From positions 128,001 through 192,000 of the forward strand of contig JBBRLI010000004.1 in the NCBI GenBank assembly GCA_038231455.1: a stretch of DNA of 64,000 nucleotides. Reading direction: 5' to 3'. Origin of the DNA: Vulcanimicrobiales bacterium. GTDB taxonomy: Bacteria > Vulcanimicrobiota > Vulcanimicrobiia > Vulcanimicrobiales > Vulcanimicrobiaceae. A program made the translations under genes and the position numbers. Below the pieces are notes generated by a model, which ran no database searches, was not told where the DNA came from, and saw only the letters and a list, made by a program, of their open reading frames with translations. Positions 12,584 through 56,660 of the stretch are shown here, piece by piece; positions within the stretch are counted from its first letter, which is position 1, and every line of letters begins with the position of its first letter.

Positions 12584-13244
12584 ACAGTTTGCGTTCGATT
12601 TGAGCGAATGAATCGAACGGGCGGAATGCTAGGCCGCGCTTGGCGAGATACGTCTCGAGAGCGCGGCCTTTTTTTGCAAAGCGAATGTCGGCGATCTCCG
12701 CGGCCGCATAGTCCGAGAGGCCATCGCCAATGAAGACGGTCCGTTCGCCGCGCGCTTTTGCTTCCCGGACGTGCACGGTCTTGTCGTGGCCGTGGTCGGT
12801 TGCATCGCGGAATGTCATAACCCAACCAGTCGGTTCGTAGCCAACATCGTTTGCGAGAATCTCGATCTCGGGAACACCTGCACGCGCGAGGTTGGCGCGC
12901 ATGAGCGAGCCGATCCCGGCGCTCAGAATCGTCGTGCTCGCGCCGTGTTCGCGCGCATGCTCGAGGAACGATGAAAACGTCGGATCGACGATTGCGGCGA
13001 CCGCAAGATACGCAAGTGCGTCGGCTTGCGATCCGGTAAGTGCGAGTGCCTGGCGGCGTAAGGCCTCGCGGAGGGTGATCTCGCCGCGCACGAGCGCACC
13101 GTCGAGTTCGTGCCAGAGCGCTTCACCCGCCGCGTGACGCACGAGCACATCGAAGGTGTCAACATTCGTGATCGTGCCGTCGTAGTCGATGAAAATGGAA
13201 AGCGCGCCCGTTTGGGGCGCGCTTTCGGCTTGATGGAGATCCAC
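12573..13244 (-). CDS. HAD-IB phosphatase, MtnX-like
   Basis: DYDGTIT motif I, LSAG, and IGDGLSD motif IV. Confidence 0.8.
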   Translation of the reverse strand: MDLHQAESAPQTGALSIFIDYDGTITNVDTFDVLVRHAAGEALWHELDGALVRGEITLREALRRQALALTGSQADALAYLAVAAIVDPTFSSFLEHAREHGASTTILSAGIGSLMRANLARAGVPEIEILANDVGYEPTGWVMTFRDATDHGHDKTVHVREAKARGERTVFIGDGLSDYAAAEIADIRFAKKGRALETYLAKRGLAFRPFDSFAQIERKLFTD

Positions 13245-13251
13245 GCGTGTC

Positions 13252-18835: not shown

Positions 18836-18851
18836 GCCCCTGGCTTCGCGA

Positions 18852-19352
18852 TTAGGTCGCCGGTGCTTGCTGGCTGAGGTTGGGTCGGCGGCGGCGACGC
18901 TTACGCGCCGCCTTCGGCTTGGCCGGTTCGACCGTGCTTGTGACCGTGTCCGCGGGGACGGCGGTCTCGACGGTCGGCGTGACCAGCGCCGTATCGGCCG
19001 CCGCCTGCGGCTCGTGCGCGAGCGCGGCGTGAGCCGGCGTTGCGCTCGAAGGCGGTTCGTAGGGTGGTGCGGTCGGGGAAGCGGGCGGTGTCGATCGTCC
19101 GTTCCGCAGACCCAGGATCGGGATATTTGCGAGCATGGCAACGGCGCTGTCTTGCTGCTCGAAGCTCACGTCGGTGTTGGCGACGTCGACTTCGCAGTAG
19201 CGCGAGATCACCTCGATCAGATCGCGCTTGAGCGACTCGACCACATCGGGTGCAAGCGAGAGATGATCGGAGAGCAGCACGAGACGCAGGCGTTCTTTGG
19301 CAGTTGCGCCGGAGCGTTCGGGTTTGAAGAAGCGGGTGAGAAAGTCGAGCAA
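18852..19352 (-). CDS. minE: Cell division topological specificity factor MinE with C-terminal extension
   Basis: AKERLRLVL and DLIEVISRY; TTG start just after the minD stop, with GGAGG upstream. Confidence 0.9.
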   Translation of the reverse strand: MLDFLTRFFKPERSGATAKERLRLVLLSDHLSLAPDVVESLKRDLIEVISRYCEVDVANTDVSFEQQDSAVAMLANIPILGLRNGRSTPPASPTAPPYEPPSSATPAHAALAHEPQAAADTALVTPTVETAVPADTVTSTVEPAKPKAARKRRRRRPNLSQQAPAT

Positions 19353-26967: not shown

Positions 26968-28225
26968 CGCCGATGCCGCGCCGCGCGAGCAAGAGCGCGG
27001 CGCGGCGACGTTCCTCGCCCAGCGTCGCGGCAACCGAAGCGCGATACGCCTCATCGACGCTCGTCGGTCGGAGTGACACGGCATTTGCGATCGCCTCATC
27101 GTTCATCATTACGACGACGATGAGGTGCCGACGTGCGAGCGCGCCGAGTTCGCCAAGAAGTGCCGCCGAGGCAACCGGATCGAACATGTCGGTAAACACA
27201 ACGACCAAGCTCCGTTTGGTTTGACGGCGGCGCAGATACGCAAACGCCCCTTCGTAATCGGACTCTTCAAAGCGCGGTTGAAGATCGGCGATGCGCCGCG
27301 CGATGAGCGCCGCATGTGCGGGACGCGCCGCGGGTGCGACGTAGTCGACGATACCACCGGCGAAGGCAAGGAAACCGACTTTGTCGTCGGCGGCGGCGGC
27401 GCGGCTTGTAAGCATGAGCGCCGCCGTCAACGCGTAGTCGAACTTGCGCTGACCCGCGACGGGCGCGGTCATCAAGCGGCCCGCATCGAGCGCGAGAATG
27501 ACGCTCTGACTGCGTTCGACGGTCCGTTCGACGACGATCGTCTTGCCGCGCCGCGCCGTAGCTTGCCAGGCGATCGATCGGAACGCATCGCCCGGGACAT
27601 AATCGCGCAAGCTTTCAAAATCACTACCGGTTCCGGTCCGACGCAGACGTCGCAACCCGGCATCGATCGTGCGCCGACGCTGCGCGAGCGTTCCCGGTTG
27701 AACGAGCGCACGCAGATCCGGCCACACACGAAACGGCGACGGAGCATCGTGGGATGCGTAGGCACGCACGATTCCCAGCGGCGTTTCCCACCACGCGGCA
27801 AACCCGGTCAGCGTCCCCGACCCGCGTTCGTGCGGCACGAACGGCAGCACCACCTCGAGCCCCGCGTTGGCTTCGATCGATGCAATCGTTTCGCGCTCTT
27901 CAAACCGCAAGAGTGCAACGGGCGCTTCGAGCAAGCCGATACGAAGCCGCAGCGGACCACGATTCTCAAGCTGATAGCGGAGCGCACCCGCTTCGCCCAG
28001 CGTCAGGCGCCCGAGCGGCTCGCGCACGATCTGCACGCGTGCGCGGCCCGGAACGAGCGCGCAATCAACCACCGCGACGATGACGAATGCGACTCCGAGC
28101 GCGATGCCAAGACCGATGCAGAACGGAAAGACCGATCCAACGCCAATGCACGCCGCGACAATCAGCGCGACGAACAACGCGCGACGCGTAAACCAGCGGC
28201 GCGGCAGCAGACGGCGAATCGTCAG
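26888..28225 (-). CDS. DUF58 (vWA-related) protein; start uncertain, possibly CTG
   Basis: GSDFESLRDYVPGD..IAWQATARR, LDAGRLM, VVFTD; directly downstream of moxR. Confidence 0.85.
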   Translation of the reverse strand: MTIRRLLPRRWFTRRALFVALIVAACIGVGSVFPFCIGLGIALGVAFVIVAVVDCALVPGRARVQIVREPLGRLTLGEAGALRYQLENRGPLRLRIGLLEAPVALLRFEERETIASIEANAGLEVVLPFVPHERGSGTLTGFAAWWETPLGIVRAYASHDAPSPFRVWPDLRALVQPGTLAQRRRTIDAGLRRLRRTGTGSDFESLRDYVPGDAFRSIAWQATARRGKTIVVERTVERSQSVILALDAGRLMTAPVAGQRKFDYALTAALMLTSRAAAADDKVGFLAFAGGIVDYVAPAARPAHAALIARRIADLQPRFEESDYEGAFAYLRRRQTKRSLVVVFTDMFDPVASAALLGELGALARRHLIVVVMMNDEAIANAVSLRPTSVDEAYRASVAATLGEERRRAALLLARRGIGVIDVPAPDLGLALVNRYIEMKTRGAI

Positions 28226-29172: not shown

Positions 29173-30310
29173 CCGTGTCCAGTTCCTTTCGGAGTTCCGC
29201 GCAAAGCTGCGCGGCATGTAGGAGTTGTGAATCATCGACGCCCGAGCGCGCACGTAGCGCGGCAAGTTCGCGAATGCGTTCGGGAGCACCGGTTCGACCT
29301 TGCGCGAGGACGGCAAGCGTGTTCGGATCGGTGTGCGTGGGGAGACCGAACGCACGCGCGACCGATGCAAACGTCGCATCGATCAAGTCGGCAAGCGCGC
29401 GCGTCGCCGCCCGCCCACGGCGCAGCAAAATCGCAAGCGATGCTAAATAGGCAGCGGAATTCGGGTCGGAGGCGATGGGAACGGCGGCGGCCGGGACAAA
29501 TCGTATGGCGGACCCGACGAGCGCGACGAGGCAAGCCCCTATCGCGATGAGGATCGCAACGCGCAGCGGCTCGGGCAGCACGAGCCAAGCCGATTCCGCG
29601 CGGCCGTATCCGTGTACGAATTCATCGAATGCAACCGTCGTATCCGGACCGGCGCCGAGAACGTTTACGGCAAAGCGCGCGTTGTCGGCGCGTTCGAGCA
29701 ATCGGTTCGTAAAAATCGTGGGGTCGCTCAGGACAACAATACGGCCGCGACCGAGCGCGTAGCTCGCAAGCACCGCACCACTTGCATCGGCAACGATCGG
29801 CACGACGGCGGGAAACGCACGGTACACGATGCGCGTGGTATCCTCGCCGACAATCTGATCGACGCCGCGCGTGTACGGCGATGCGATGATCGGCACGGCA
29901 CCGTACGTGTTACGAACGGTGATCTCGCGCGTCACCGGAAGTTTCAGGGTCTTGCGCGCATACGCGCTACTACTGCCGATGACAACGAGCGTCTTGCCGC
30001 GTTTCGCGACAAAATCACGTAGCTCGTCGACGTCGACTTTGGCATACGTGCCGATTCCCGATAGAACCAATCGGTCGGCGACCAGAAATCGCGGATGGCG
30101 ATTGCTTTCGACAACGCGGACGCCTTCGCGCTCGAGCAAACGGCGCACGGCAAGATAGCCTCCGCGATCGCTATCGTGGGTCGAATACGTATCGACGTAA
30201 TCGGGCGGCGCGGCGCGCTGTGCACCCACAATTCCAGCAACGATCAGGGCCAGCGTAACGAGTGCGAGCGCGATGACATCACCCGGCCGCAGCGCGCGCA
30301 GGAGCATCAT
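29141..30310 (-). CDS. DUF4350-type membrane-anchored protein
   Basis: N-terminal TM, YST..G, GRGRIVVLSDP.IFTN, FDEF.HG, C-terminal TM; MoxR cluster context. Confidence 0.7.
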   Translation of the reverse strand: MMLLRALRPGDVIALALVTLALIVAGIVGAQRAAPPDYVDTYSTHDSDRGGYLAVRRLLEREGVRVVESNRHPRFLVADRLVLSGIGTYAKVDVDELRDFVAKRGKTLVVIGSSSAYARKTLKLPVTREITVRNTYGAVPIIASPYTRGVDQIVGEDTTRIVYRAFPAVVPIVADASGAVLASYALGRGRIVVLSDPTIFTNRLLERADNARFAVNVLGAGPDTTVAFDEFVHGYGRAESAWLVLPEPLRVAILIAIGACLVALVGSAIRFVPAAAVPIASDPNSAAYLASLAILLRRGRAATRALADLIDATFASVARAFGLPTHTDPNTLAVLAQGRTGAPERIRELAALRARSGVDDSQLLHAAQLCAELRKELDTDGTQRRAAAR

Positions 30311-31071
30311 GCGAAGACGCGCTCGTACGCAGCAAGCGTGCTTGCCCACGCCAATTCATCGGGTTCGCGATTTCCGTACACCGCGACGACGTATTCGCGC
30401 GCGAGCGTATCGAACGGCTCGGCGAGCGGCGCCTGCGCGCGACGTACGGCCCGCCGATATTCCCCAGGCGTGCGCGCAGCGTCGTATCCGACGATTCCAC
30501 GTTCGTCGAGCGACCGCAGTGCAGCCCCGAACGTCAGGCCGATCGCCTGGGCGAATTCACCGCGCGAAGCACGCGCGCGTGCTGCTGCAAGCAACTCTGC
30601 CGAGCCCGCATCATGCGATCCGGCAGCGGTGCGCATCGTAGCGCCGATCCGGCGCTCGACACGACGTCGAACCACCGTTACGAGCAGCGCCAGCGCCCCG
30701 AGCGACGCGAGCGCGGCAAGTAGTAAGACGAGCGTCTGATTCTGTTGCGAGTTCAGATTTGTCGCGCGGCGTAAACCCTTGAAGAGTTTCTCGAGGATCG
30801 AACCGAGCCAATTGAAAAAACGGTCGATCAACGACTCTTCTTTCTTCCGTGGCTTCGGATGGGGATGCGCGAATTCCGGGGCCGCAAGAATCGTGTGCGC
30901 GAGCCAGTGTGCGTCGCGCGGCGGCACAAATGCGACCTCATTTGCCGCACGCTTCGCGCGCTGCAATCCGAGCGCGATGGCTTTAGGATCGGCTTTCTTC
31001 GCGCGTCGCGCGGCGTCCACAAAGTCCGCAAGCGATGGCACCGGTGGACGGCGATGCACGATCGCCGGCAC
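30307..31071 (-). CDS. DUF4129 domain protein
   Basis: Single TM, then A..GEF..AI, ARTPGEY, VYG; MoxR cluster context; start uncertain. Confidence 0.7.
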   Translation of the reverse strand: MPAIVHRRPPVPSLADFVDAARRAKKADPKAIALGLQRAKRAANEVAFVPPRDAHWLAHTILAAPEFAHPHPKPRKKEESLIDRFFNWLGSILEKLFKGLRRATNLNSQQNQTLVLLLAALASLGALALLVTVVRRRVERRIGATMRTAAGSHDAGSAELLAAARARASRGEFAQAIGLTFGAALRSLDERGIVGYDAARTPGEYRRAVRRAQAPLAEPFDTLAREYVVAVYGNREPDELAWASTLAAYERVFA

Positions 31072-31099
31072 CGGCGGCGGTGTCGTTACGATCGGAATC

Positions 31100-32050
31100 T
31101 CACGCGATGGGCGCGAGTGGGACCGCTGCCGACGTCGCCATCAAGTCCGAACCTTCGCGACGCAGGCGTACATCCAGATAGTAAATGGTTGCCGTTGCCG
31201 TCGAAAAGATGACCCCGATCGAACTAAAGAGCTGCGCGATGACGACATAACTTGCGAACCACTTCGTGAGCGCGAAGACGAGGCCGCCCACGACCAAACC
31301 CAGGAGCGATGTCGCTAAGGTAACGGCGAAGAGCGCGAGCGAAACCACGATCGATCGCAAAAATTCGCGCCGGGCGAAAATTCGCGCAAAAGACCGGCCG
31401 ATCGCAACGAATGGGTTGCCCGTTTCGAGAACGGCGCTAGCGAACGACACGATCGCGAGTGCATAGCCGAGCGCGCCGAGAGGAACGCTTATGACAAGCG
31501 CAACCAGACCAATCAGCAGGCTCGCAACGATCCCACCTTGATCGGGGACGGCGACACCTTTGGTGCGCACAACGGTAAAAATAATCAGTCCGAAGACGAT
31601 CGAGAAGACGAAAATCACAGCGACGAAGATGAGGAACCAGACGGCACCCGTCCCGAGCATGCTCGGCAAGCGACGAAGCGCGCTGCGATAGATTCCACCA
31701 ATCGTTAACGACTCGCCGTCGAGCGCGCGTGCGATGGCAAGCGTTACGACGCCGATCATCAGCGGCGTGATCAAGAGTGCGATCAGCACGATCGCATAAT
31801 CGAACGGTCCGGATTTTGGGATCGAATTCAGGATGGCTGCGGTGTCGGTCTTGCCACCTTTGGCCGCAGCTTGGATCGCCGCAATGTACTGATTGAGCGG
31901 ATTCACCGAAAAGCTCTGCAAGATTGCAAGTGGGACCGAAAGCACCGCAACCAACGCGATCAACATCGGAAAGCGCTGCACGCTCACCGTCACAGCACGG
32001 TCGAGAATCTCGCCCAAATGAAGTGGACGATCGAGCCCACGAATCGACAT
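31100..32050 (-). CDS. Multi-pass membrane protein of the MoxR cluster
   Basis: RPLHLGEILDRA N-terminus and YYLDVRLRREGSDL C-terminus; several TM helices. Confidence 0.75.
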   Translation of the reverse strand: MSIRGLDRPLHLGEILDRAVTVSVQRFPMLIALVAVLSVPLAILQSFSVNPLNQYIAAIQAAAKGGKTDTAAILNSIPKSGPFDYAIVLIALLITPLMIGVVTLAIARALDGESLTIGGIYRSALRRLPSMLGTGAVWFLIFVAVIFVFSIVFGLIIFTVVRTKGVAVPDQGGIVASLLIGLVALVISVPLGALGYALAIVSFASAVLETGNPFVAIGRSFARIFARREFLRSIVVSLALFAVTLATSLLGLVVGGLVFALTKWFASYVVIAQLFSSIGVIFSTATATIYYLDVRLRREGSDLMATSAAVPLAPIA

Positions 32051-32061
32051 CAAACCCGCTT

Positions 32062-32919
32062 TCAGTCGCTGGTAACAGACGCCGCAAAATTCGCGTGAGC
32101 GCGAAGCCCCTCCTGGAGTAAATCCGTGCCATCACGCCGGACGATGAGGTCACGACGCAAGGAAACAAGCGCGGCGACGTTCACGACGTGCGACCCGCCG
32201 CCCAGCACGGCGATCAGAACAACGCGTGCGACGTGTTCGACAAGCGGTGATGCCGCTACGAGGCCTAAGAGATAGTCGCTCGTCACGGCCCCCACATAGA
32301 TGCTGCCGAGGTGAACGGCAAACGCGGCGCCGGCGACGAGCATGGCGCTAACGCACGTGCGGCGGGTTGCAAGCCAGCCGAATGTTACCCGCAAGGCTCC
32401 AAACGGCGAGCGCGTGTCTAGGACGATTGCCGTTAGTGCCAGTCCCGCAACCGCGGCACTATAGGCCATGACCGCGAGCGCGATCAGCGCGGGCACGAGC
32501 GCGACCAGGACGACAAGCGCTGGATTTGCTCGGCTCAGCGGTGCGATCATCAGCGTCACGACAATCCCGGCAACAAGAAGCGCAAAGCCGACCATGAGCG
32601 CGAGTGCAAACGCCGTGGCGATAGCGAACGGGAATCGCCGCGCCGCCGAGATCACGATCTCCCCCGGGCGTGAGCGACGCCCATCGAGGTGCGCGTCGAG
32701 AAACGTGACAAGCACGGTCAAGGCCGCAAGGTCGACGAGGATGTCGATCAGGAAGGGCACCCACGAGAACGCGCCGCTACCGTCCTCGATTAGCGCGCCG
32801 GTCAGTTCGAACGCGCAGCCGATACCGATCGAAACGACGGCGGTGCGCACCACAAGATCGATCGCCCGATCGAAAATTTCGCCGACGCCGCGTGGTCGCT
32901 CCCGTTCGCGAACCGACAT
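32062..32919 (-). CDS. Multi-pass membrane protein, paralogue of 31100-32050
   Basis: RPRGVGEIFDRA N-terminus and RRDGTDL C-terminus. Confidence 0.7.
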   Translation of the reverse strand: MSVRERERPRGVGEIFDRAIDLVVRTAVVSIGIGCAFELTGALIEDGSGAFSWVPFLIDILVDLAALTVLVTFLDAHLDGRRSRPGEIVISAARRFPFAIATAFALALMVGFALLVAGIVVTLMIAPLSRANPALVVLVALVPALIALAVMAYSAAVAGLALTAIVLDTRSPFGALRVTFGWLATRRTCVSAMLVAGAAFAVHLGSIYVGAVTSDYLLGLVAASPLVEHVARVVLIAVLGGGSHVVNVAALVSLRRDLIVRRDGTDLLQEGLRAHANFAASVTSD

Positions 32920-32984
32920 AAAACCCGCTTTCGGTCGTACGCTTCGAGCGGGCATTTTTCGCGCGTGACCGGAATCAACCTCGC

Positions 32985-33626
32985 GTGACTCGCTCGATCG
33001 TCGGCAGCATCTCGGAACTCTGGACGTATCCGATCAAAGCGCTCGCTCCGCATGCGCACGATCGCGTCGTCGTCGAAGCGGAAGGCCTTGGGGGAGACCG
33101 CGAGCGCGCGTTGTTCGTGGAAACGAGCGAGCACCGTCGATTTGGCAAGACGTTGCGCGGCAAAGAGAACGCGCTCATGCATACCGCACCCGATCTTGCG
33201 AGCGGGATTGCGATTGCCGAGCAGGGAGGCGCGACGGTACGTCTCTCCGATCCCGCGCGCTACTTCGATGCAGCTCCGGTCTCGATCATCATGGACACGT
33301 GGGTTCGTGACTGCGAGCGTCTCGCCGGCGTGCCGGTCGAGCCGCAGCGATTTCGACCGAACATTTATGTGCGGTCTGAGCCGGGATTTGCTCTGGTGGA
33401 AGCCGATTTTATCGGCGCGACGATTCGCATCGGTGATGTCGCGCTGCTTGTCGTCGACCGCATTATCCGCTGCGTAACACCAGCTTACGATCTGATCACG
33501 GGTGAGACGGACGCTGCGATCTTGCGTGCGATCGCAAACGATCGCAAGAACATTGTGGGCATCTATGCCGAAGTGGCGCAGACTGGATCGATCGCGCGCG
33601 GCGACGCATTGACCTTAACTCAGTGA
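32985..33626 (+). CDS. MOSC domain protein
   Basis: YPIK, GDR, RFRPNI, RCVT, GIYAEV..GSI..GD. Confidence 0.85.
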   Translation: MTRSIVGSISELWTYPIKALAPHAHDRVVVEAEGLGGDRERALFVETSEHRRFGKTLRGKENALMHTAPDLASGIAIAEQGGATVRLSDPARYFDAAPVSIIMDTWVRDCERLAGVPVEPQRFRPNIYVRSEPGFALVEADFIGATIRIGDVALLVVDRIIRCVTPAYDLITGETDAAILRAIANDRKNIVGIYAEVAQTGSIARGDALTLTQ

Positions 33627-34220
33627 ACGGCGGCCTTCCAGGGCCTTTGCGAGCGTGACTTCATCGGCGTAGTCCAGATCGCCGCCGATTGGCAAACCAT
33701 ACGCAAGGCGCGTGACGCTCACGCCGCTTGGTGAGATGAGTCGCGAGAGATAGAGGGCCGTTGCTTCGCCTTCGGCATTCGGATTCGTCGCGACCACAAC
33801 TTCGCGGAAGTCTTCGCTCCTGACCCGTTCGATGAGTTCTTTGATGTGCAGTTGCGCGGGGCCGATGCCGTCCATCGGCGAGATCAAGCCGCCGAGCACG
33901 TGGTATTTGCCGCGGAACGCCGACGTGCGTTCGATCGCGTAGATATCTTTTGCCTCGGCGACGACGCAAATTTGCGTTAGATCGCGGCGCGCATCCGTGC
34001 AGATGCCGCACGGGTCTTCTTCGGTGATCGAAAAGCAGCGCGAACATTGGCGCACGCGATCTTTGAGCGCGATGATGGCCTCGGAGAGGGCTTCGGCTTC
34101 AGCGCGAGGCCGGTTGAGCAAATAAAACACCAACCGCGCAGCCGTCTTCGGCCCTACGGTCGGCAGTTTACTGAACTCGTTGATCAGAGCCGCGACGGGC
34201 CCCGCGATCGCGCTTGAAAT
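33615..34220 (-). CDS. recR: Recombination mediator RecR
   Basis: LPTVGPKTAARL HhH, C4 zinc finger, Toprim (ATNPNAEGEATA); frame open back to ATT 34220. Confidence 0.93.
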   Translation of the reverse strand: MSSAIAGPVAALINEFSKLPTVGPKTAARLVFYLLNRPRAEAEALSEAIIALKDRVRQCSRCFSITEEDPCGICTDARRDLTQICVVAEAKDIYAIERTSAFRGKYHVLGGLISPMDGIGPAQLHIKELIERVRSEDFREVVVATNPNAEGEATALYLSRLISPSGVSVTRLAYGLPIGGDLDYADEVTLAKALEGRRSLS

Positions 34221-34529
34221 CTACATCAACCCGGGAATTTTCATCCCGCCGGTGAGTTTGCCCATTTTCTGACCCGAGAGTTCTTGCACTTTGCCAAGCG
34301 CATCGTTGAGCGCGACGACGAGCAAATCTTCAAGCGTCTCGATGTCATCGGGATCGACGGCTTCTTTGCTCACGGAGATTTTTTGCACGCGGAAATCTCC
34401 GTTGATCGACGCGGTCACGGCGTTTCCGCCGGCACTACCCGTCACGGTTGTCGCTTTGAGCTCGTCTTGAACGCGCTCCATCTCTTGTTGCATCTTGCGC
34501 ATCTGCGCCATCAATTGGGCTTGGTTCAT
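34221..34529 (-). CDS. ybaB: YbaB/EbfC nucleoid-associated protein
   Basis: MNQAQLMAQMRKMQ, GSAGG, DPDDIETLEDL; 102 aa, between dnaX and recR. Confidence 0.93.
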   Translation of the reverse strand: MNQAQLMAQMRKMQQEMERVQDELKATTVTGSAGGNAVTASINGDFRVQKISVSKEAVDPDDIETLEDLLVVALNDALGKVQELSGQKMGKLTGGMKIPGLM

Positions 34530-34548
34530 CGTGTCCTCATTTGCGTGA

Positions 34549-36324
34549 TTAGCTAAAGCGTTTGAGCGCGTAGAGTTTGAGGTCGTTCTGATCGACGGCG
34601 CTGCCGTCGTCTTCGGTCGGCGGCGGAGCGCCCGGACCCTGCACGATTGAGAGCGTGAGCGAACGCCCAAGCACATCGGCAAGCGCTTTTTGCACGAGCG
34701 CCTGCTGCGCGCGCAAGAGCTGAGCGTTGGGCGGCGAGCTCGCGCGTAGCGTAAGCGTATCGCCCTCCAACTTCTCGACCATCGTACTCGAAAGCGGCCC
34801 GGCCATCGCCGGCTTCTCGCCTTCGACACGCGTGCGAACGCTCTGCCAAAGCGACCGCACTTTTTGTAAGGAGACCTCGCCCGGCGCGCCGCCCGAGGGC
34901 GGTGTTTCCACGTGGATCGGCTCAACCGCCGAAACCGCGGGTACCGGCGGTTCCGGCGCGGCCGCAACCAGCGGTTCGGGCGCAGCGGCGGTGAGCGGAG
35001 AGTCGGAAGGCAAGTCCGCAAGCGTCGGCTCCGCACCCGATAATGTGTGCACCTCGGGTGAGACGGGTCGCGGAAACGGAACAGCAACGGGATTCGTCGG
35101 TCGGGTAGCCGGGGGACGCACGGAAGCGGCTGCGGGAGCGGGGGCCGACCGCTGAGGCGGGAGCGCCGCAGCAGCCGGAAGCGCCGAGATTCCCCCACCG
35201 GCTTCAATGGCGGCGACGCGCGACGCCAGAGCCTCAAGTGACGGATCTTCCGCCGCTAGCATGAAGCGCAGCAGAGCGGTCTCGAGTTCGAGTCGGGCAT
35301 TCCCCGACGCGCGACTCGCCGTGAGCGCTTCGCCAAGCAGCCGCAGCGCGCGAACGATCCGCGCCTGCGACGTCGCGTCGGCACGAGCGAGCGCCTCAGC
35401 AGCATCATCGGCCGAAAGATCGCGCGCGAGCAATTCGGGATTCACGCGGCCAACGAGCAAATGCCGAAATTCCGCCGTCAGGCTCCGGATGAGCCCCGGC
35501 ATATCGGTCCCTGCATCGCTCGCATCGTCGATCAGGCGCAACCCCGTAGCCGCATCGTTTGCAAGCGACGCATCGAGCAGCGAACGTGCATATTCACGCC
35601 CGGTCGTGCCAAACGCCGCATCAACCGTCGCAAGATCGACCGGACCATTCGCAAACGACGCAACCTGTTCGAGCATCGTGAGCGCATCGCGCAAGCCGCC
35701 ATCGGCCCGATACGCAATCGCGCCAAGCGCCGCATCATCGATCACGATCGACTCGGCAAGCGAGATCTCACGCATCCGCTCGATCATCGTCGGAATCGCA
35801 ATCCGTCGAAACGCATACCGCTGACAACGCGAGAGAATCGTCGGCGGCAACGCCTCCGGCGCCGTCGTCGCAAGAATAAAGACAGCATAGTCCGGCGGCT
35901 CTTCAAGCGTTTTTAAGAACGCATTGGCGCCTTCTTTGGTAAGCATATGCGCTTCATCAATGATGTAGACTTTGTTGCGCATGCTCGAAGGAGAGAACTT
36001 CACCGCATCACGCAGCGCCCGAATCTCATCGATGCCGCGATTCGACGCAGCATCGATCTCCAAAACATCAAGCGCAGAGCCATTCAAAATAGCAACGCAA
36101 TTCTCACACGTATTATCAGGCGTCGCCGTCGGCCCATTCACACACTCAATACACCGAGCGAGAATCTTCGCAGCCGAAGTCTTCCCCGAGCCCCTCGGCC
36201 CAGAAAAAAGATACGCATGCGCAAGCCGCCCCGTCGAGAGCGCCGTACTAAGCGTACGAACAACAGCATCCTGACCAACCAAGTCCGCAAACGACCGCGG
36301 ACGCCAAGTACGATAGAGCGACAC
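34549..36324 (-). CDS. dnaX: DNA polymerase III subunit gamma/tau
   Basis: SLYRTWRP..F.DLVGQ, GPRGSGKTS, EIDAASNRG, IIDEAHML, SRCQ; GTG start at 36324 or 36327. Confidence 0.95.
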   Translation of the reverse strand: MSLYRTWRPRSFADLVGQDAVVRTLSTALSTGRLAHAYLFSGPRGSGKTSAAKILARCIECVNGPTATPDNTCENCVAILNGSALDVLEIDAASNRGIDEIRALRDAVKFSPSSMRNKVYIIDEAHMLTKEGANAFLKTLEEPPDYAVFILATTAPEALPPTILSRCQRYAFRRIAIPTMIERMREISLAESIVIDDAALGAIAYRADGGLRDALTMLEQVASFANGPVDLATVDAAFGTTGREYARSLLDASLANDAATGLRLIDDASDAGTDMPGLIRSLTAEFRHLLVGRVNPELLARDLSADDAAEALARADATSQARIVRALRLLGEALTASRASGNARLELETALLRFMLAAEDPSLEALASRVAAIEAGGGISALPAAAALPPQRSAPAPAAASVRPPATRPTNPVAVPFPRPVSPEVHTLSGAEPTLADLPSDSPLTAAAPEPLVAAAPEPPVPAVSAVEPIHVETPPSGGAPGEVSLQKVRSLWQSVRTRVEGEKPAMAGPLSSTMVEKLEGDTLTLRASSPPNAQLLRAQQALVQKALADVLGRSLTLSIVQGPGAPPPTEDDGSAVDQNDLKLYALKRFS

Positions 36325-36505
36325 CACCCAAAGTTCGGGAACCGCCACACCCAACCCCACAAGGAACCCCGAACAACAAGCCCAGAGAAAACGCCGCACC
36401 GCAGGTGTCTGAACTCCCCCTCAGGGCTTGGGTTTTCTCGCTACCAACCCTCACCGGCGTTGCCGAACGGGCTTATGAGGAAGCCGCAGATCGAGATCGT
36501 GCCTA

Positions 36506-36677
36506 GCGGCTACGGGTGGGGTTTCTGGCGGGGTGTCTGAGCTTTTCGCGGAGCGTGTTGGCCCAGCGTAGGCTGGGACAACTCATCAGGATGGCGGGAG
36601 CGAAAAGTCAGCAAGTAGGCTTTTCCCAAGGATGGGAAAAGCCGGGCGCCCCCGCCAGAAACCCCACCCGTAGCCGC
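36506..36677. repeat. 172-bp palindromic element with 28-bp perfect terminal inverted repeats and internal hairpins (REP/MITE-like or structured RNA)
   Basis: GCGGCTACGGGTGGGGTTTCTGGCGGGG (36506-36533) is the exact reverse complement of 36650-36677. Internal stems: CCCAGC-GTAG-GCTGGG and GGCTTTTCCCA-AGGA-TGGGAAAAGCC. Confidence 0.85.
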
Positions 36678-36813
36678 AAGCCCCAACCCAATCAGCCGAA
36701 ACCCAGCCACGTTTGGCAGAGTATACCAAGGGGTACCCTCCAACCAAGCCCACTCCTAACTTTGCGCTCATGTTATGACCGCGAAGCTCTTGTATCCTCA
36801 GAGTTATACAATT

Positions 36814-38490
36814 ATGAGCACAGCAACGGCAATCGATCTCCTCGGAGCACTGCGCGAGAAATTCGGGTTCGAGCGCTTTCAACCGGGTCAAGAAGAAGTG
36901 ATCACGCGCGTTATGAACGGCGAGAATTCGCTCGCCATTTTAGCGACCGGCGCCGGGAAAAGTTTGTGTTATCAGCTCCCCGCGCTGCTGCTGGATGGAA
37001 CGACGATCGTCGTTTCGCCGCTCATCGCGCTGATGAAAGATCAGCTCGATATGCTTGCGGAGCGCGGCGTAAAAGAAGTCGTCGCGCTCAACTCGACGCT
37101 CTCGGAAGATCAAGAGTCGCGCGCAATGTCGCGCATCGCGGGCGGCAGCACGAAGATCGTCTTCGTGACGCCCGAGAAGCTCGAAGACGAAACGTTTATC
37201 GGCATTCTCAAGACGCTGCACGTCCCACTCTTCGTGGTCGACGAGGCGCACTGTATCTCCGCCTGGGGCCACGATTTCCGTCCCGCGTATTTGGGCCTCG
37301 GACACGTGATAGCCGAGCTCAAACACCCAACCGTTCTTGCGCTTACGGCAACGGCGACGCCCGCCGTGCGCGAAGATATCCTCATCCAGCTGGGCATTCC
37401 GAATACGAAGCCGATCGTCAAAGGCTTCGATCGCCCCAATCTGCGCTACGAAGTCAAACGTGCGGAGAACGAAGCCGCGAAGTTGCGCGCGCTCAAAGAT
37501 CTCTTCCAAACCGGCCTCGAAGGCACCGGGATCATCTACACCGCGACGATCAAGAACGCGCTCGAAGTGCAAAAATATTTGCACGACACGTTGAACTTGC
37601 CGGCGGCTGTGTACCATTCGAAGTTACAGAAGTACGATCGCGTTTCGGTCCACGAACTGTTCATGGGCGAGGCGATCCGTGCGGTCGTCGCCACGAACGC
37701 GTTTGGTCTTGGGATCGACAAGCCGAACATTCGCTTTGTCGTGCACTACGATCTCCCGGGATCGGTCGAAGCGTATACGCAGGAAGCCGGTCGCGCCGGA
37801 CGCGACGGCGACCTCTCGCGCTGCATATTGATCTACCGCATGAGCGACACGCGCGTGCAGAACTACTTCCTCACCGGCAAGTATCCCAACGTCGAGGAAG
37901 TGCAAAAAGTCTTCGGCACGCTCGAATACTTCGGGACGCAAGAAGGCGGCGTGTCGCTCACCGACATGCGCAAGATCTCGCAGCTGCCGCTCACCAAGCT
38001 CAAAGTCATCCTGGCCCTGCTCAAGAAGAGCGGCTTCATCGAGACGAGTTCGCGCGCGAAGTATACGCTTACCGATGCCGCCCGCAAAAACCGTGAGCTG
38101 GTTCTCAATCTTGCGAACTACGAGACGAAAAAGTCGTACGACCAATCGAAGCTCGCTATGATGCTGCAGTACTGCGAGACGGGATCGTGCCGCCGCAAAT
38201 TCATTCTCAACTATTTTGGCGAGGATTTCGAGCGCGAGAACTGCGGGCAGTGCGATAACTGCCTTGCCAAGCTTGCGCGTTCTGCCAAAGCCCAATCGAG
38301 CAACACGCCGATCGCCTCGACGCCGACCGTCAAAGGCGAATATCGTATCGCCGACGTTGTCTTTCATCCGAAATTCGGGCAAGGCACGGTCGAGCGTACC
38401 GAGAAAGACCTGGTAACGGTCTTATTCCCGAGCGTTGGGTATAAGACGCTGCTCGCGTCTGCCGTCAGTCGCGAAGCAAAAATCGCTTAA
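36814..38490 (+). CDS. recQ: RecQ family DNA helicase
   Basis: TGAGKSLCYQ, VDEAHCIS.WGHDFRP, TATA, QEAGRAGRDG, CRR..YFGE..CGQCDNC. Confidence 0.93.
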   Translation: MSTATAIDLLGALREKFGFERFQPGQEEVITRVMNGENSLAILATGAGKSLCYQLPALLLDGTTIVVSPLIALMKDQLDMLAERGVKEVVALNSTLSEDQESRAMSRIAGGSTKIVFVTPEKLEDETFIGILKTLHVPLFVVDEAHCISAWGHDFRPAYLGLGHVIAELKHPTVLALTATATPAVREDILIQLGIPNTKPIVKGFDRPNLRYEVKRAENEAAKLRALKDLFQTGLEGTGIIYTATIKNALEVQKYLHDTLNLPAAVYHSKLQKYDRVSVHELFMGEAIRAVVATNAFGLGIDKPNIRFVVHYDLPGSVEAYTQEAGRAGRDGDLSRCILIYRMSDTRVQNYFLTGKYPNVEEVQKVFGTLEYFGTQEGGVSLTDMRKISQLPLTKLKVILALLKKSGFIETSSRAKYTLTDAARKNRELVLNLANYETKKSYDQSKLAMMLQYCETGSCRRKFILNYFGEDFERENCGQCDNCLAKLARSAKAQSSNTPIASTPTVKGEYRIADVVFHPKFGQGTVERTEKDLVTVLFPSVGYKTLLASAVSREAKIA

Positions 38491-38545
38491 GACGCTCGCC
38501 GGCGTTTAGACACCGGCGCCGGGTCGGTTTGGTCGGGTAGAGGAT

Positions 38546-40351
38546 ATGCGACGCGCAACTTTCGCGCCGTTCGGTTTTATCGTGATTGCGATGCTCGCGC
38601 TTTGGGCGACGGGGGTCACCAGCCGCGCGCAATCGGTTAATCCGCCCGTTTCCCCGCCTCCCACCGGCTCAAGCGTGAATCCGCCGGGCGTTCCCACCCC
38701 TGGATCGCTTGCGACGCCTCCGAACAACGCGCCAATTGCAACGCCGCAGTCGCAGCCAACGGGGCCGTCCGGGGCGCCTACGCCCGGGACGACACCGGCG
38801 GCAACGCCGATGCCCGGTGAGTCGCCGAACGGGGCGAGCCCCGGGCCGTACACACCGCAGCCGATCGTCACGGTACCACCGACACCCGTGCCGATAATCG
38901 TCGAACCGCCGTACCCGGGCGTCGTCGTCGGATCGACGCTCGTCGCGCGCGTCTCCGGGGTCTATGGGACGCTCATCGCCGTCTCGGCGAATCCCGCGAT
39001 CGCCGAGGTTACCGTCGATCAAGTCGCGCGCACGCTCAGCATCTCGGGCAAGTCCTTAGGGATGACAACGCTCACCCTACACGACGATCGAGGGACCGTC
39101 ACGCGCGACGTTCCGGTGATGGTCGCGTACAATGCCGGCGCGATTCCCGAGAGCGTTCCGCTGCGAATCACCGGCAATCCGGCGACCGGCGACTACGTGC
39201 GCGAAGCGGCCGCAGAAGCCGCGCGTGTCGCAACACTCGCCTATGCGCGCCCCGGAGCCGCCGTGCGCGTCTTCACCGATGCGATGTCGACGGTGCCGCA
39301 AATTGGGATCGACAACCGCGCGACGATCGACGTCCCGGTACAAATCGACGGGGAAGGCTACTTCACGGTCTCCGGAACGACGCACGTCGTCGTCGACAAT
39401 ATCGCACTCCCGCGCATCCAACCATCGCTCTTGCTCGTGAGCGATTTTCCCGAAACGCTGCGCTCGAACGGGATTCTCTTTACCGCGCAATTGGCACGTC
39501 GCGAAGCCAAGCGCTTTCTGTACTATCACTACAACCCCAAGACCGAGCCCGCGCGACGCATCTTACTCAAGCTGCACAACTCCTCAGCGCAGCCGGCGCG
39601 CGTGCAGTTCATCGAAGGTCAAGGCGGTCCCAACACCAACGAAATCCTCGTTGGGCATCAATCGACGCAGCGCTTTCTCGTTCGCGAATTGCAGAACGAA
39701 GGCGTCGTCGTAACGATTCCACCGAACGCGACGATCAATCTTGTGAATCATGCATTGCCGCCGGGCGCCGTCGTCAGCGGTCTTCTGCAGTTACGCGAAG
39801 TCGACGGCGATCCGCTCGACCTCACACTCCTCGCGCAGGACGCCGAGACGGCGACCGATGCGCCGTTCGATGCGACGCATTTGCTCGAGGGGACCGTGGC
39901 CCACGCACGCGGCGAATACAAAGTGCCGGAGTTTTATTTCGAGAACACCTACGACACGTCGGGGGCAAATCTCGAAATTCCGATCGGACAGTTGCCGTTG
40001 CCGAACCTCCGTCAAGGAGAAGCGCTCGCGGGCGACTACGGCGTCAAGGCGCAAGTGACGGTGACCATCGTAAATTCCGGGCGCACCGCAATGCCCACAG
40101 CGATCTACGCAAATCCACGCGGCGGGAAGGCAACCGGAACGTTCCTGATCGATCGCACGCTCGTACAATCGCATGCGCTGGCGCCGTTCTCGACATTCAA
40201 GATCTGGCAGGAGACCATTCCCGCTGGGACGTTCCGCAAAGTCGTGATCGTCACGATGCCCGAAGGCGGCTCGTCCTATCCACTGCGTCTTATTTTCGCG
40301 CCGGACGACGGCAGCATTCCGCCGGGTGCACCGGGCTCACCGATTTACTAG
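38546..40351 (+). CDS. Secreted protein with Pro-rich N-terminus and Ig-like (pilus assembly N-terminal-type) domain
   Basis: Signal peptide, Pro/Thr-rich linker, S.NP.IA.V...G.T.L.L Ig-like pattern. Confidence 0.55.
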   Translation: MRRATFAPFGFIVIAMLALWATGVTSRAQSVNPPVSPPPTGSSVNPPGVPTPGSLATPPNNAPIATPQSQPTGPSGAPTPGTTPAATPMPGESPNGASPGPYTPQPIVTVPPTPVPIIVEPPYPGVVVGSTLVARVSGVYGTLIAVSANPAIAEVTVDQVARTLSISGKSLGMTTLTLHDDRGTVTRDVPVMVAYNAGAIPESVPLRITGNPATGDYVREAAAEAARVATLAYARPGAAVRVFTDAMSTVPQIGIDNRATIDVPVQIDGEGYFTVSGTTHVVVDNIALPRIQPSLLLVSDFPETLRSNGILFTAQLARREAKRFLYYHYNPKTEPARRILLKLHNSSAQPARVQFIEGQGGPNTNEILVGHQSTQRFLVRELQNEGVVVTIPPNATINLVNHALPPGAVVSGLLQLREVDGDPLDLTLLAQDAETATDAPFDATHLLEGTVAHARGEYKVPEFYFENTYDTSGANLEIPIGQLPLPNLRQGEALAGDYGVKAQVTVTIVNSGRTAMPTAIYANPRGGKATGTFLIDRTLVQSHALAPFSTFKIWQETIPAGTFRKVVIVTMPEGGSSYPLRLIFAPDDGSIPPGAPGSPIY

Positions 40352-41355
40352 ACCACGCGACGATAGATCGCACTGCAAGCAGCAGCGGCGGTCGACCACG
40401 CGAATCGTTCGGCCGCTGCGAGTCGCATCGCCGTGGTGGGCACCGCTTCGAGGGCGGTGCGCGTAGCCTCGATCCACGCAGCACCATCGTCGGGATTGCA
40501 GAGCGCGCCGTCGATACCGGTCACTTCGATCAGCGATGAGCTTGCCGCGGCAACCAATGGAATCCCGGCGCACAGCGCCTGCGCTGCAGCGTACCCGAAC
40601 CCTTCGTACCGCGATGGAACGAGTGCGACGGCGGCCTGGGCGTGCAGGCGCAAGAGTTCGGAACGCTCGACGTAGCCGCGAAATTCAACTCGGTCCGCGA
40701 TTCCAAGTTCCGCGGCCCGCGCACGACACACCTCAAGATACGGCGTCGGCGGTCCGACTGAAACAAGTCGCAGGTCCGGAATTGCGGCGACCGTTTCAAT
40801 CGCGCGAAGCAGATTCTTTCGCGCCTCGACCGTGCCGAGGGCTAAGGCAAACGGTCGTTCGCCGCGCACGCGCTCGAGCGCGACAAACGCCGGATCGACG
40901 CCCGGATACACAACGTGGACGCGCGCCGGATCGCCGCCGACCAGTTCGAGATATTCGGTGCGCGTAAAGTTCGAGTCGACGACGATCGCGGCCGCCGTGC
41001 GATAACGCCGGCGCATGAACGTGCCGAAATACCAGCGCGCGTACGGGCGCGTGTGCCCTTGCACGCGCAGCCAAGCAAGATCGTGCACGGTCGTAACCAC
41101 CGGTACGCCTGCGCGATATGGCATCGTGCCACTCGTTGCGTGAAGCAGAGCGGCGCCGCTGCGCCGCAGCTGAATCGGCAGCTCGATTTGATCCCAACGC
41201 ACGCGACGATCGAAGCGCCACGGATCGAGTCGCGGATTCGCAAGTTCGCTCACGTCGATACCGGTCGCACGCAGGCCCGTCGCAAGGCCGCGCGCATATT
41301 CACCGATCCCCGTGGACGTCCCGACGGCAAGCTGCAAATCGAGTGCGACTTTCAC
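40348..41355 (-). CDS. Glycosyltransferase family 4
   Basis: TGIGEY, TVHDL, RKNL, PSRYEGFG. Confidence 0.88.
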   Translation of the reverse strand: MKVALDLQLAVGTSTGIGEYARGLATGLRATGIDVSELANPRLDPWRFDRRVRWDQIELPIQLRRSGAALLHATSGTMPYRAGVPVVTTVHDLAWLRVQGHTRPYARWYFGTFMRRRYRTAAAIVVDSNFTRTEYLELVGGDPARVHVVYPGVDPAFVALERVRGERPFALALGTVEARKNLLRAIETVAAIPDLRLVSVGPPTPYLEVCRARAAELGIADRVEFRGYVERSELLRLHAQAAVALVPSRYEGFGYAAAQALCAGIPLVAAASSSLIEVTGIDGALCNPDDGAAWIEATRTALEAVPTTAMRLAAAERFAWSTAAAACSAIYRRVV

Positions 41356-42092
41356 GAAGGCGCGACCGGCCGCAGGTCGAGGCGCGGGTCACCCGGGTCG
41401 AGACGACGCGCTTGCGCGTACGCGTCATCAGCCAGAGCGCGATCGCCCAGAACGAAATAGGTATCGCCGATCCCGAGAAGCAGCGTCACGTCGATCGGCT
41501 GCAGCGCGCGGGCACGTGCATACGCATTGAGTGCCGACAGCAACTCTCGCCGACGCTGCGTGCGGTCGGCAAGCGCGCAAGCGTAGTGCAGCTTTCCGAG
41601 TTTGATGAGCGCATCCACCCGATTTGCGGGTCGCGCGGGATCGCGTTCGAGTCGCGCGACCAACTGCTCTTCGAGCGCGACCGCTCCCGCAAGATCGCCC
41701 GCCGCGACAAGGCGGTCGACAAACGGGAAAACCTCGTTCGCATCGCCGGCGGCAAGAAAGAACGGCAGCGCAGCGCGCGGATCGTGCCGCAAGAGCGCGA
41801 CCCGCCCCGCGAGATCGTCGCGCGCGTCGCTCGGTGCGAGCCGCACGATCTGCGTACGTGCTGCCGCAACATCGCCGCGAACCACGGCCGCCTGCGCGAG
41901 CGCGAAGGTCGACCACGACGTCGGGAGCATGGCATCGATGCGCTCCAAAAGCGCGGGACCGATCGTGCGGCTAAGCCATCCCGGTAGCGATGCGGGTTCT
42001 GCGAGCGAACCGAACGCACCGTCGCAAGCAATTTGAATGAGGCAAGAGAGCGTGACCGCGACGATCGCCATCGCGGCGAAGAAACGGCGCAT
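41352..42092 (-). CDS. TPR-repeat protein
   Basis: N-terminal hydrophobic segment; TPR-like A..AY.RAR.LDP repeats. Confidence 0.65.
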   Translation of the reverse strand: MRRFFAAMAIVAVTLSCLIQIACDGAFGSLAEPASLPGWLSRTIGPALLERIDAMLPTSWSTFALAQAAVVRGDVAAARTQIVRLAPSDARDDLAGRVALLRHDPRAALPFFLAAGDANEVFPFVDRLVAAGDLAGAVALEEQLVARLERDPARPANRVDALIKLGKLHYACALADRTQRRRELLSALNAYARARALQPIDVTLLLGIGDTYFVLGDRALADDAYAQARRLDPGDPRLDLRPVAPS

Positions 42093-56259: not shown

Positions 56260-56660
56260 GGCGCGGGCGTCGCCTTTGCTTCATCGATCTTGAGGATTTT
56301 CTCGACATCCGCGGTGATGTCGACGCCGCCAAAGCCCGTCGCCTGACGTGTGAAAACCATCGTCAGATGCTTCTCGCTTGCGACCTGCTGCGAGGCGCTG
56401 GAAAGATCTTGAGCGATTTCGTTTTGAAACTGCACGTAGCGATCTTGCAGCTTCGCGCGCAGTTTCGCTTTGTCGGATGCCGATGCGTTCGACCGTTCGA
56501 TCGTCGCGGCGTCAGCGTTGATTTGGTTCTGGTTGTTGATGTATTTCGGCCAATAGCCGGCAAGGCGCTGGACGTCGAGCGTTGCGATATCGCTTTTTGG
56601 CGCCGCGGTGCAAGCGGCAAGGGCGGTTGTGAGCAGTGCGGCGATGATGGTGCGTTTCAC
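56256..56660 (-). CDS. Small Skp/OmpH-like lipoprotein
   Basis: Lipobox LAAC, IATLDVQ, C-terminal GGVDITADV. Confidence 0.6.
   Translation of the reverse strand: MKRTIIAALLTTALAACTAAPKSDIATLDVQRLAGYWPKYINNQNQINADAATIERSNASASDKAKLRAKLQDRYVQFQNEIAQDLSSASQQVASEKHLTMVFTRQATGFGGVDITADVEKILKIDEAKATPAP

Follow-up and report, generated by a model that had tools for sequence, protein, structure and literature searches.

In the genome of a Vulcanimicrobiales bacterium (G000), the 5′ third of dnaX, the gene for DNA polymerase III tau/gamma, falls within a compositional halo of about 1 kb that is anchored at an adjacent hairpin-forming repeat, here called R1. The gene is located in a stretch of 64,000 nucleotides (the window), which corresponds to positions 128001-192000 of contig C4 (JBBRLI010000004.1); coordinates given without a contig are those of the window. 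The extreme G/T bias of dnaX is one of at least ten oriented, element-anchored halos and is not a property of dnaX itself. The halos are anchored at and oriented by copies of R1, decay with distance from them, are independent of the directions of genes and of replication, and are absent at young copies. They may be the trace of a slow mutational bias that accompanies recurrent opening of the duplex in one direction.

G000 is a metagenome-assembled genome (MAG) of 3.71 Mb in 106 contigs and is 93.7% complete. Codon statistics were taken from a crude gene set of 3,199 greedy longest open reading frames (ORFs) covering 90.8% of the genome, in which third positions are composed of A.133, C.399, G.304 and T.165. 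K3, the share of G+T among third positions, has a mean of.466 and a standard deviation (sd) of.064 over 33,791 windows of 100 codons. Composition was also scored without gene calls as keto skew (negative where a strand is A+C-rich) in 300-nt windows, with a genome sd of 0.073 (73,633 windows).

The dnaX gene (34549..36324, minus strand) starts with a GTG at 36324 and encodes a 591 aa product with Pfam matches to DNA_pol3_delta2 (E 4.9e-43), DNA_pol3_gamma3 and DNAX_ATPase_lid. An earlier note on this DNA had counted by hand 45 T, 44 G, 11 C and 0 A at the third positions of codons 1-100, and the recount is identical (A0 C11 G44 T45). The bias is graded along the gene: the third positions are A0 C4 G25 T21 in codons 1-50, A0 C7 G19 T24 in codons 51-100 and A7 C13 G15 T15 in codons 101-150, later blocks of 50 codons contain three to seven A, and the G/T excess declines past about codon 230. 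Counting from 36399, where the ORF starts, the first window of dnaX has a K3 of.91, the genome maximum and thus the most extreme of all windows in the genome-wide survey that the note had proposed; just two of the 33,791 windows are at or above.89. The plus-strand keto skew at 36101-36400 is -0.36, about 5 sd off the mean and third in rank among the patches of the genome. The halo spans 35295..36494, with a G+T-rich (C- and A-depleted) minus strand, and takes in the 5′ coding part of dnaX along with 170 nt of untranslated sequence upstream. Its peak is at 36000-36450 and it has faded at a distance of about 1.2 kb; moving left from 36494 in bins of 200 nt, the plus-strand keto skew is -0.27, -0.29, -0.08, -0.20, -0.17 and -0.12, and then +0.01.

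This shift is synonymous, as the earlier note had held. Comparison with 27 outgroup dnaX genes reveals no consensus residue replaced in codons 1-100 and four replaced in codons 1-240, and at the 41 codons whose third base is C in most outgroup genes, the G000 gene has T in 25, G in 10, C in 6 and A in none.

The palindrome that the earlier note saw beside dnaX is real and is one copy of a repeat family of ~165-195 nt (36493..36690; nhmmer match at 36495-36686, E 5.7e-38; cmsearch score 163.9 bits). It contains a long inverted repeat with 45-nt arms (36503..36547 and 36636..36680) that are 84% complementary and separated by 88 nt, and its predicted fold has a minimum free energy (MFE) of -126.8 kcal/mol (z = -11.7 relative to shuffled sequences). 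In its apical part the element may carry an extra 32 nt (36555..36586), an insert that three of the ten G000 copies have (those at dnaX and gcvPB and the one on contig C11). The left end of the dnaX copy is ATCGTGCC and the right end is AGCCGCA, which is AGCCACA in most others. The family was found by BLAST followed by nhmmer, giving ten copies in G000 (E ≤ 4e-10). The ten copies share conserved internal loops, and each has stems of its own that remain complementary, with compensatory changes at 40 of 61 predicted pairs among the ten copies; since conserved loops and covarying stems are found across genera, the elements themselves appear to be under selection.

All ten G000 copies carry a halo of the same orientation, in which the element plus strand is rich in A+C along the ATCGTGCC-side flank. 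The per-copy mean keto skew over the first 600 nt ranges from -0.09 to -0.32 with an overall value of -0.219, which is far outside the distribution for means of ten random sites (z = -11.4; none of 100,000 resamples falls below -0.089). Averaged over the ten copies, the skew on this side decays from -0.29 at 0-200 nt through -0.20 (200-400), -0.17 (400-600), -0.19 (600-800), -0.13 (800-1000), -0.12 (1000-1200) and -0.10 (1200-1400) to about -0.05 beyond 1400 nt. On the other side of the element the pooled skew is -0.30 in the first 50 nt, -0.14 in the next 50 nt and -0.08 to -0.15 out to 250 nt, and then approximately zero; the skewed strand therefore starts ~100-250 nt before the element and runs on through it. 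The strand that runs 5′ to 3′ away from the element changes from.19 to.33 in T, from.30 to.20 in C and from.19 to.14 in A, and four-fold degenerate sites within 300 nt are composed of A.07, C.16, G.44 and T.33, compared with A.12, C.40, G.35 and T.13 in the background. The polarity is the same whether the resident genes are sense (six loci) or antisense (four loci) to the skewed strand. The inferred C>T change is enriched after every 5′ neighbor, more so after T (.70,.64) than after G (.53,.33), a preference so mild that no deaminase enzyme can be named from it.

The 8-mer ATCGTGCC was considered as a cause by itself and rejected, because 539 scored sites outside elements have a mean skew of +0.007 and no halo. 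G000 contains 52 keto-skew patches of at least 400 nt, and the six largest are all linked to an element. Extreme K3 patches with a G+T-rich coding strand are found in gatC/A/B, dnaN, uvrB, and beta-lactamase-like and CrtC-like genes, and patches of the opposite polarity in gcvPB, an MGMT-like gene, carB and others; many of these patches adjoin an element copy.

One copy has a more complex neighborhood. The element at C4:199773-199933 is situated in the dnaA-dnaN spacer, which we take to be the usual place of oriC, and its normal halo enters the 3′ end of dnaA. Codons 125-350 of dnaN (C4:198389-199504) are also G/T-biased, with K3 up to.85; this patch lies 800-1400 nt from the element on what would be the wrong side, with mirrored polarity.

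Comparison with 31 related genomes shows that the bias accompanies the element. Among 29 dnaX loci, the element is beside dnaX only in G000 and its congener G001, and only these two genes are biased (G001 codons 1-100: A2 C19 G43 T36); the other 27 loci (including that of the unpublished genome G030) have 6-18 T per 100 codons and normal codon use. Halos are present at all seven G001 copies with a left flank and at all six copies scored in G010, a single-contig genome of another genus, where they peak at 200-600 nt from the element and where two copies (L058 and L244) bear a second, mirror-image halo on their opposite flank. Three G010 halo genes differ from their G000 homologues, which lack a mapped R1 copy, with K3 of.67 versus.40,.33 versus.50 and.26 versus.44. 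Elsewhere the halo is variable: most of six copies in G017 have short halos, six copies each in G003, G020 and G021 have none or weak ones, the best copy in each of 23 other genomes (including the unpublished G009) gives a mean of about zero, and 26 public Eremiobacterota loci have a mean of -0.116 at 0-300 nt, with eight at or below -0.15.

The earlier note had anchored the skew at the palindrome with a fixed orientation, and none of the outcomes that it named against itself was found. Relatives without the element beside dnaX are normal (27 of 27) and those with it are biased (two of two), the other copies carry the same oriented halo (10/10 in G000, 7/7 in G001 and 6/6 in G010), and the share of A-ending codons (A3), which a lower-GC donor would have raised, is 0 in a gene whose protein is orthologous and unchanged. 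The stretch is also reproduced by a second assembly, in which a Logan contig of the probable source run spans 34400-36567 with one letter different; it is a separate assembly, but not independent data. The Logan contigs of this run end inside the element, and one of them, which presumably derives from a different copy, skips the 32-nt insert and connects 36554 directly with 36589. All contigs found to contain the stretch come from this one run, and no RNA run was listed among the matches.

The halo is younger than the insertion and can outlive it. In G005, whose copies form two near-identical subfamilies, 30 loci (29 distinct copies) have no halo (mean -0.05), which indicates that insertion comes first and the halo later. 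The gatCAB copy has been lost from G001 (contig C33) by a clean deletion of ~131 nt that left a 24-nt remnant, and the halo is kept; the carB copy is present in G001 and missing in G000, where the patch persists. The halo thus builds slowly, outlasts the element, and arose at different loci in at least two genera.

Substitution rates are not raised within the halos. Synonymous transition frequencies between G000 and G001 are 0.132, 0.161 and 0.159 on the halo side and 0.170, 0.203 and 0.169 on the other side. A rough equilibrium estimate from four-fold site frequencies predicts ~1.9x background divergence for pure hypermutation, ~0.5x for pure suppression of the reverse changes and ~1x for a mixture; the observed value is ~0.7-0.8x, so ongoing hypermutation is unlikely. 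The local mutagenic process proposed by the earlier note therefore stands as to anchoring and orientation and becomes doubtful as to raised mutation: a slow bias, or asymmetric repair or protection, fits better than a mutation hot zone. Its placement of the start at or near the palindrome likewise holds for the anchoring and not for the exact start, which precedes the element.

A second, larger palindrome family was found through long inverted repeats and strong folds at the origin side of patches left unexplained by R1. Its four large copies (C7 33800-34180, C3 83350-83710, C7 109334-109527 and C11 4015-4142) are up to ~380 nt long (with an MFE of -213 kcal/mol for a fold of 361 nt) and share common pieces (e.g. 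GGGGAATCGCG). Each has a one-sided halo of ~600 nt that follows the same rule of a G+T-rich strand running 5′ to 3′ away, and the copy at C7 109334-109527, upstream of uvrB, accounts for the G/T patch at the 5′ end of uvrB. Halos are absent from short hairpins of the terminator type and from this family's sub-hairpins of 50-60 nt. Unfiltered cmsearch for degenerate R1 copies near dnaN, uvrB and other patches gave nothing above noise.

C>T and A>G changes on one strand, graded from a fixed start, point to an unpaired or newly made strand and a one-directional process. Our preferred explanation, with a probability of roughly one half, is that the duplex at the element is opened again and again in one direction, accompanied by an R-loop or by primed displacement of a strand. 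Along one flank of each old copy, the outgoing 5′ to 3′ strand would slowly trade C for T and, to a lesser degree, A for G wherever sites can vary freely, and selection on the proteins would remove non-synonymous changes such that only synonymous and non-coding positions display the halo. The duplex would be opened repeatedly and in one direction from just upstream of or at the element, either by transcription across the hairpin with R-loop formation or by RNA- or nick-primed strand displacement; the outgoing strand would be unpaired or non-template more often, and its partner protected or repaired. Because the skew begins before the element and runs through it, the pattern resembles a transcription unit containing the hairpin and not a start at the hairpin. 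The unraised divergence similarly favors exposure of one strand with protection or repair of its partner, as in transcription with R-loops; selection also fits this observation, and error-prone resynthesis alone fits it less well.

Several points weigh against duplex opening, beginning with the fact that it is a mechanism we infer. Synonymous transitions over 0-1000 nt are 0.148 in halos and 0.187 on the other side, and with no raised substitution rate there is room for selection on flank composition. Per site, A>G is about as large as C>T (at four-fold sites C falls from.40 to.16 and A from.12 to.07); plain hydrolytic deamination would be expected to give A>G far below C>T, and vertebrate mitochondrial DNA shows both. 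The element folds equally well on both strands (-94.15 and -94.08 kcal/mol), so neither can be named as a functional RNA, and a tally of G.U wobbles, approximately equal on the two strands, does not indicate one either. A search for sigma-70-type promoters at 36200-36900 yielded no sites, no shared promoter motif is evident by eye upstream of the ten copies, and three of the four antisense loci lack a co-directional upstream gene from which transcription could read through. Expression level alone was rejected as a cause of the bias, and the same observation counts here: the highly expressed tuf and fusA have K3 of.41 and.43 and are unbiased. Finally, G020 and G021 copies with diverse stems are free of halos, so age alone does not explain which lineages bear them.

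A tentative extension of this reading, possible but doubtful, is that the palindromes are active cis-elements that start one-directional synthesis or editing and serve as natural multi-copy 'mini-origins'. They might act via R-loop or RNA-primed strand displacement or via a recruited strand-specific base-modifying activity, and would thereby rewrite synonymous sites within ~1 kb, including those in dnaX, dnaA, gatCAB, uvrB and gcvP.

It seems unlikely that the halo is instead produced by primed synthesis of low fidelity, in which the element would be a priming or nick site akin to ColE1 RNA II or a plasmid single-strand origin. A Pol I-type polymerase would then remake the outgoing strand with G.T-type misincorporations, and its processivity would set the ~1 kb decay. 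Plasmid single-strand origins are long hairpins with conserved loops and are active in one orientation, and the effect described here follows element orientation and not replication direction. The closest footprint is that downstream of the ColE1 origin, for which Allen et al. (2011; PMC3167613) report 140 C>T versus 29 G>A and 32 A>G versus 9 T>C, an exponential decay with a half-distance of ~800 bp, and a hand-over from DNA polymerase I (Pol I) to Pol III at 1.3 kb or more. The R1 halo is likewise one-directional and strand-specific, runs on the strand 5′ to 3′ away with C>T far above G>A and A>G above T>C, and extends ~1.4 kb, so polarity, spectrum order (C>T, then A>G) and length scale all match the measured Pol I footprint (PMC3167613). 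The likeness, the ~1 kb decay included, is one of footprint only. The ColE1 footprint sets out from a structured-RNA or R-loop start, as the halo would. The comparable per-site rates of A>G and C>T also fit polymerase wobble errors better than hydrolysis. However, the ColE1 data come from experiments with an engineered error-prone Pol I on a plasmid, whereas the halo is a natural gradient on an evolutionary scale at a chromosomal multi-copy repeat and without a raised substitution rate. Error-prone synthesis should raise the synonymous divergence between G000 and G001, MutS (present in all 31 genomes) would correct a nascent strand, and a start at the element does not predict a skew beginning ~100-250 nt before it.

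Selection on the flank in place of mutation is less probable still. The flanking strand would be kept free of C and A such that its A+C-rich complement cannot fold, whether to leave a transcript or single strand unstructured, to favor or block loading of Rho or RecA, or to let the hairpin fold without competition. A strand of only A and C forms no Watson-Crick pairs, the slightly lower synonymous divergence of halos (0.148 versus 0.187) is what constraint would give, and the conserved loops and covarying stems across genera are consistent with a functional element. The persistence of the G001 gatCAB halo after deletion of the element suits selection too, but counts just as much against a requirement linked to it. 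No functional demand readily explains a smooth decay over 1.4 kb, the halo extends across unrelated genes regardless of their orientation and across non-coding DNA in the same way, young copies work without it, and we know of no function that requires a keto skew of 1 kb.

Cleavage of the hairpin followed by repeated resection and fill-in, leaving a strand-biased footprint, is very improbable. SbcCD cuts hairpins in E. coli, and a G+T-rich strand running 5′ to 3′ away from the element is the prediction of 5′ to 3′ resection with resynthesis; two unrelated families of large palindromes have halos, and mirrored second halos are seen at the dnaA-dnaN copy (the dnaN patch) and at L058 and L244 in G010. 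Two mirror halos would be expected throughout, however, whereas the other side in G000 is near zero beyond 250 nt and of the wrong sign within 250 nt. Moreover, the side is predicted by element orientation at 10/10, 7/7 and 6/6 copies, and divergence is not raised.

Causes unconnected with the element were examined individually and rejected. Replication-strand skew does not account for the orientation, as the background GC skew, measured 3-15 kb from the copies and oriented with them, is positive in seven cases and negative in three and never exceeds 0.03 in magnitude; nor does replication direction, since plus- and minus-strand copies are interspersed among the 13 along the complete G010 chromosome. 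Expression level does not either, with no bias in tuf and fusA; as regards transcription-associated asymmetry, the halo is sense to the resident gene at six loci and antisense at four. Gene transfer from a low-GC donor is contradicted by an A3 of 0 and by N-terminal 100 residues identical to the outgroup consensus, and assembly error by the second assembly and the recurrence of halos in independent MAGs, including single-contig genomes. Loss of repair is not indicated, with MutS_I (PF01624), uracil-DNA glycosylase (UDG; PF03167) and RNase_H (PF00075) each found in 31/31 genomes. Reverse transcriptase-driven conversion or a diversity-generating retroelement, which would make adenine-specific changes copied from a template repeat, is not supported: RVT_1 (PF00078) is in 2/31 genomes and not in G000, G001, G005 or G010, and the C>T and A>G changes seen affect synonymous positions across 1 kb and lack such a repeat. 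Hence, even though a G+T excess is the textbook signature of a leading or non-template strand, dnaX is on the G-excess strand of the window and the genome is a 106-contig MAG, a cause apart from the element (replication strand, expression, a recombined donor allele, reverse transcription or an assembly artefact) is hardly credible in the face of the orientation, tuf and fusA, the A3 of 0, the lack of RVT_1, the second assembly and the recurrence in MAGs.

Footprints of this kind are known from plasmid origins, mitochondria and transcribed genes. In vertebrate mitochondrial DNA, Reyes in 1998 and Faith and Pollock in 2003 are said to have described a build-up of C>T and A>G changes on the strand that remains unpaired during one-directional synthesis, graded from the origin and best seen at four-fold sites; that is one genome-wide gradient from one origin, whereas here there are many local 1 kb gradients at repeat copies. 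Transcription-associated strand asymmetry is reported to bias changes to the non-template strand (PMC2927911), but the most highly expressed genes of G000 are without bias. The zone of immunoglobulin hypermutation is reported to begin ~100 nt past the promoter and to extend 1-2 kb (PMC2212980); this scale is halo-like, although that process is somatic and enzyme-driven and raises the mutation rate.

R1 is reminiscent of repetitive extragenic palindromes (REPs and REPINs) and of miniature inverted-repeat transposable elements (MITEs) in being multi-copy, intergenic, hairpin-forming and lineage-restricted, with a burst in G005 and copies that break assemblies. REPs and REPINs are described as short palindromes of 20-40 bp that carry a GTAG or CGTC tag (PMC3733652). 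R1 differs from them in its length of 165-195 nt, its ends (ATCGTGCC and AGCCACA), the lack of a cognate REP-associated tyrosine transposase (RAYT) in G000, G001, G005 and G010, and its conserved internal loops with copy-specific covarying stems. Its copies resemble those of a MITE in their signs of recent mobility, with near-identical copies in G005, 1-57 matches per genome and presence or absence differing between congeners. The searched full texts, which cover subscription journals thinly and exclude supplements, contain no report of repeat-anchored compositional halos in bacteria, including those of REPs or MITEs. To our knowledge, flanking halos of REPs or MITEs have not been reported. 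What appears to be new is the attachment to multi-copy chromosomal palindromes, the strength in essential genes and the clock of element age.

Local composition in bacteria is usually ascribed to replication direction, expression level or foreign origin, and a repeat element is here a fourth cause, with an imprint strong enough to clear all A-ending codons from the first 100 of an essential gene. In compositional screens, such halos can be mistaken for horizontal transfer or misassembly, and they can bias estimates of codon usage and synonymous divergence in the genes they touch. If one-directional opening or synthesis is the cause, the elements would mark R-loop, priming or nicking sites in an uncultured phylum, and the halos would provide a sequence-only read-out of this activity and of element age. 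If the 'mini-origins' proposal were true, the elements would represent, in nature, what has been engineered as targeted mutators anchored at a promoter or origin, and would reveal a new route by which mobile elements shape neighboring genes.

R1 is widespread among the relatives of G000 and seemingly restricted to them. Its covariance model matches 27 of the 31 genomes, across the class, with 1-57 matches per genome (the maximum being in G005); matches exceed copies because some sites match on both strands. In a pattern scan of one genome per species (185,579 species), 38 loci of the 60 tested (80 listed) are confirmed by the R1 model, all with Eremiobacterota, Vulcanimicrobiota or unclassified labels save one labeled Alphaproteobacteria. 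Scan matches outside Eremiobacterota (in Streptomyces, Pseudomonas and Gemmatimonadota, for example) were rejected as chance, as the structure model did not confirm them. Rfam 15 gives no match at the gathering score in 30000-42000 and none at E ≤ 1 in 36250-36850, and comparison with plasmid and phage records reveals no similarity.

The near-identical G005 copies imply that the element is or was mobile, and R1 presence differs between G000 and G001; the G000 copies at gcvPB, C10b and C12, for instance, have no counterpart in G001. The gatCAB copy (L001:2780-2990, on G000 contig C9) is flanked by a 10-nt direct repeat, GGGTGGTGGC, which is not general among copies; a second GGCACGAT is located 45 nt past the end of this element, and the arrangement resembles a joined empty site. 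Mobilization by a RAYT/IS200-type transposase was considered and rejected, as Y1_Tnp (PF01797) was found in 4/31 genomes and in none of G000, G001, G005 and G010, although with G000 93.7% complete its absence there is not proven. In G005, G015 and G017 (L074/L107, L050 and L241/L246), copies are often in head-to-head pairs or triplets 100-400 nt apart. Six short ORFs between paired copies (L099 and L050) have no Pfam match, and no autonomous partner element with the same ends was identified.

Further sequence features adjoin or interrupt the element. A box with the conserved sequence CTTCTTCTTAGCCGTTT (AACGGCTAAGAAGAAG on the complementary strand) is situated 20-45 nt past the ATCGTGCC end in about five of the ten copies (e.g. 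L001, L005 and L003), with a weak counterpart in the window at ~36440-36470, indicating that the element is longer than the model on that side. The 32-nt insert reads, on the minus strand, CUGAUGAG followed by a stem-loop, a hammerhead-like string; Rfam gives no hammerhead match for 36555-36586. A TGGTATACT string, similar to an extended -10 motif, is present on the minus strand at 36715-36735, ~35 nt upstream of the element and in the sense of dnaX, and GGGTACC is common to the dnaX and gcvPB copies near this site. Judged by its sequence, TGGTATACT could be a promoter that places the hairpin in the dnaX leader.

The genes on either side of dnaX have ordinary codon use. A ybaB-like gene (34221..34535, minus strand) is downstream of dnaX and outside the halo, and its third positions (A20 C37 G36 T12) are normal on the same strand, as the earlier note had observed. 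Beyond the element, a weak and short extension of the same-strand skew (36687..36886, minus strand; -0.14 in the first 200 nt for this copy) enters the start of a divergent ORF (36775..38490, plus strand) with third positions of A72 C231 G189 T80, which we take from its N-terminal sequence, not from a domain scan, to be a recQ-like helicase gene. The dnaX of G010 (L032) matches in three successive pieces in different frames (2-228, 229-398 and 473-579), and could be a frameshifted gene or reflect long-read indel errors.

The remaining skew patches are mostly small, and 38 of the 52 are without an element nearby. Patches of 0.2-0.28 with neither family nearby include C1:316626-317300, C1:329176-329725, C8:116001-116450, C1:147126-147700, C53:3626-4200 and ~30 smaller ones, and within the window those at 11801-12100, 13151-13600, 18851-19150, 27901-28200 and 56401-56700. 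Some element-free patches touch contig ends, where an unassembled copy may lie. A region of very high AT skew (0.36-0.43) extends over ~600 nt at 31200-31800 in the window and is unconnected with the dnaX halo.

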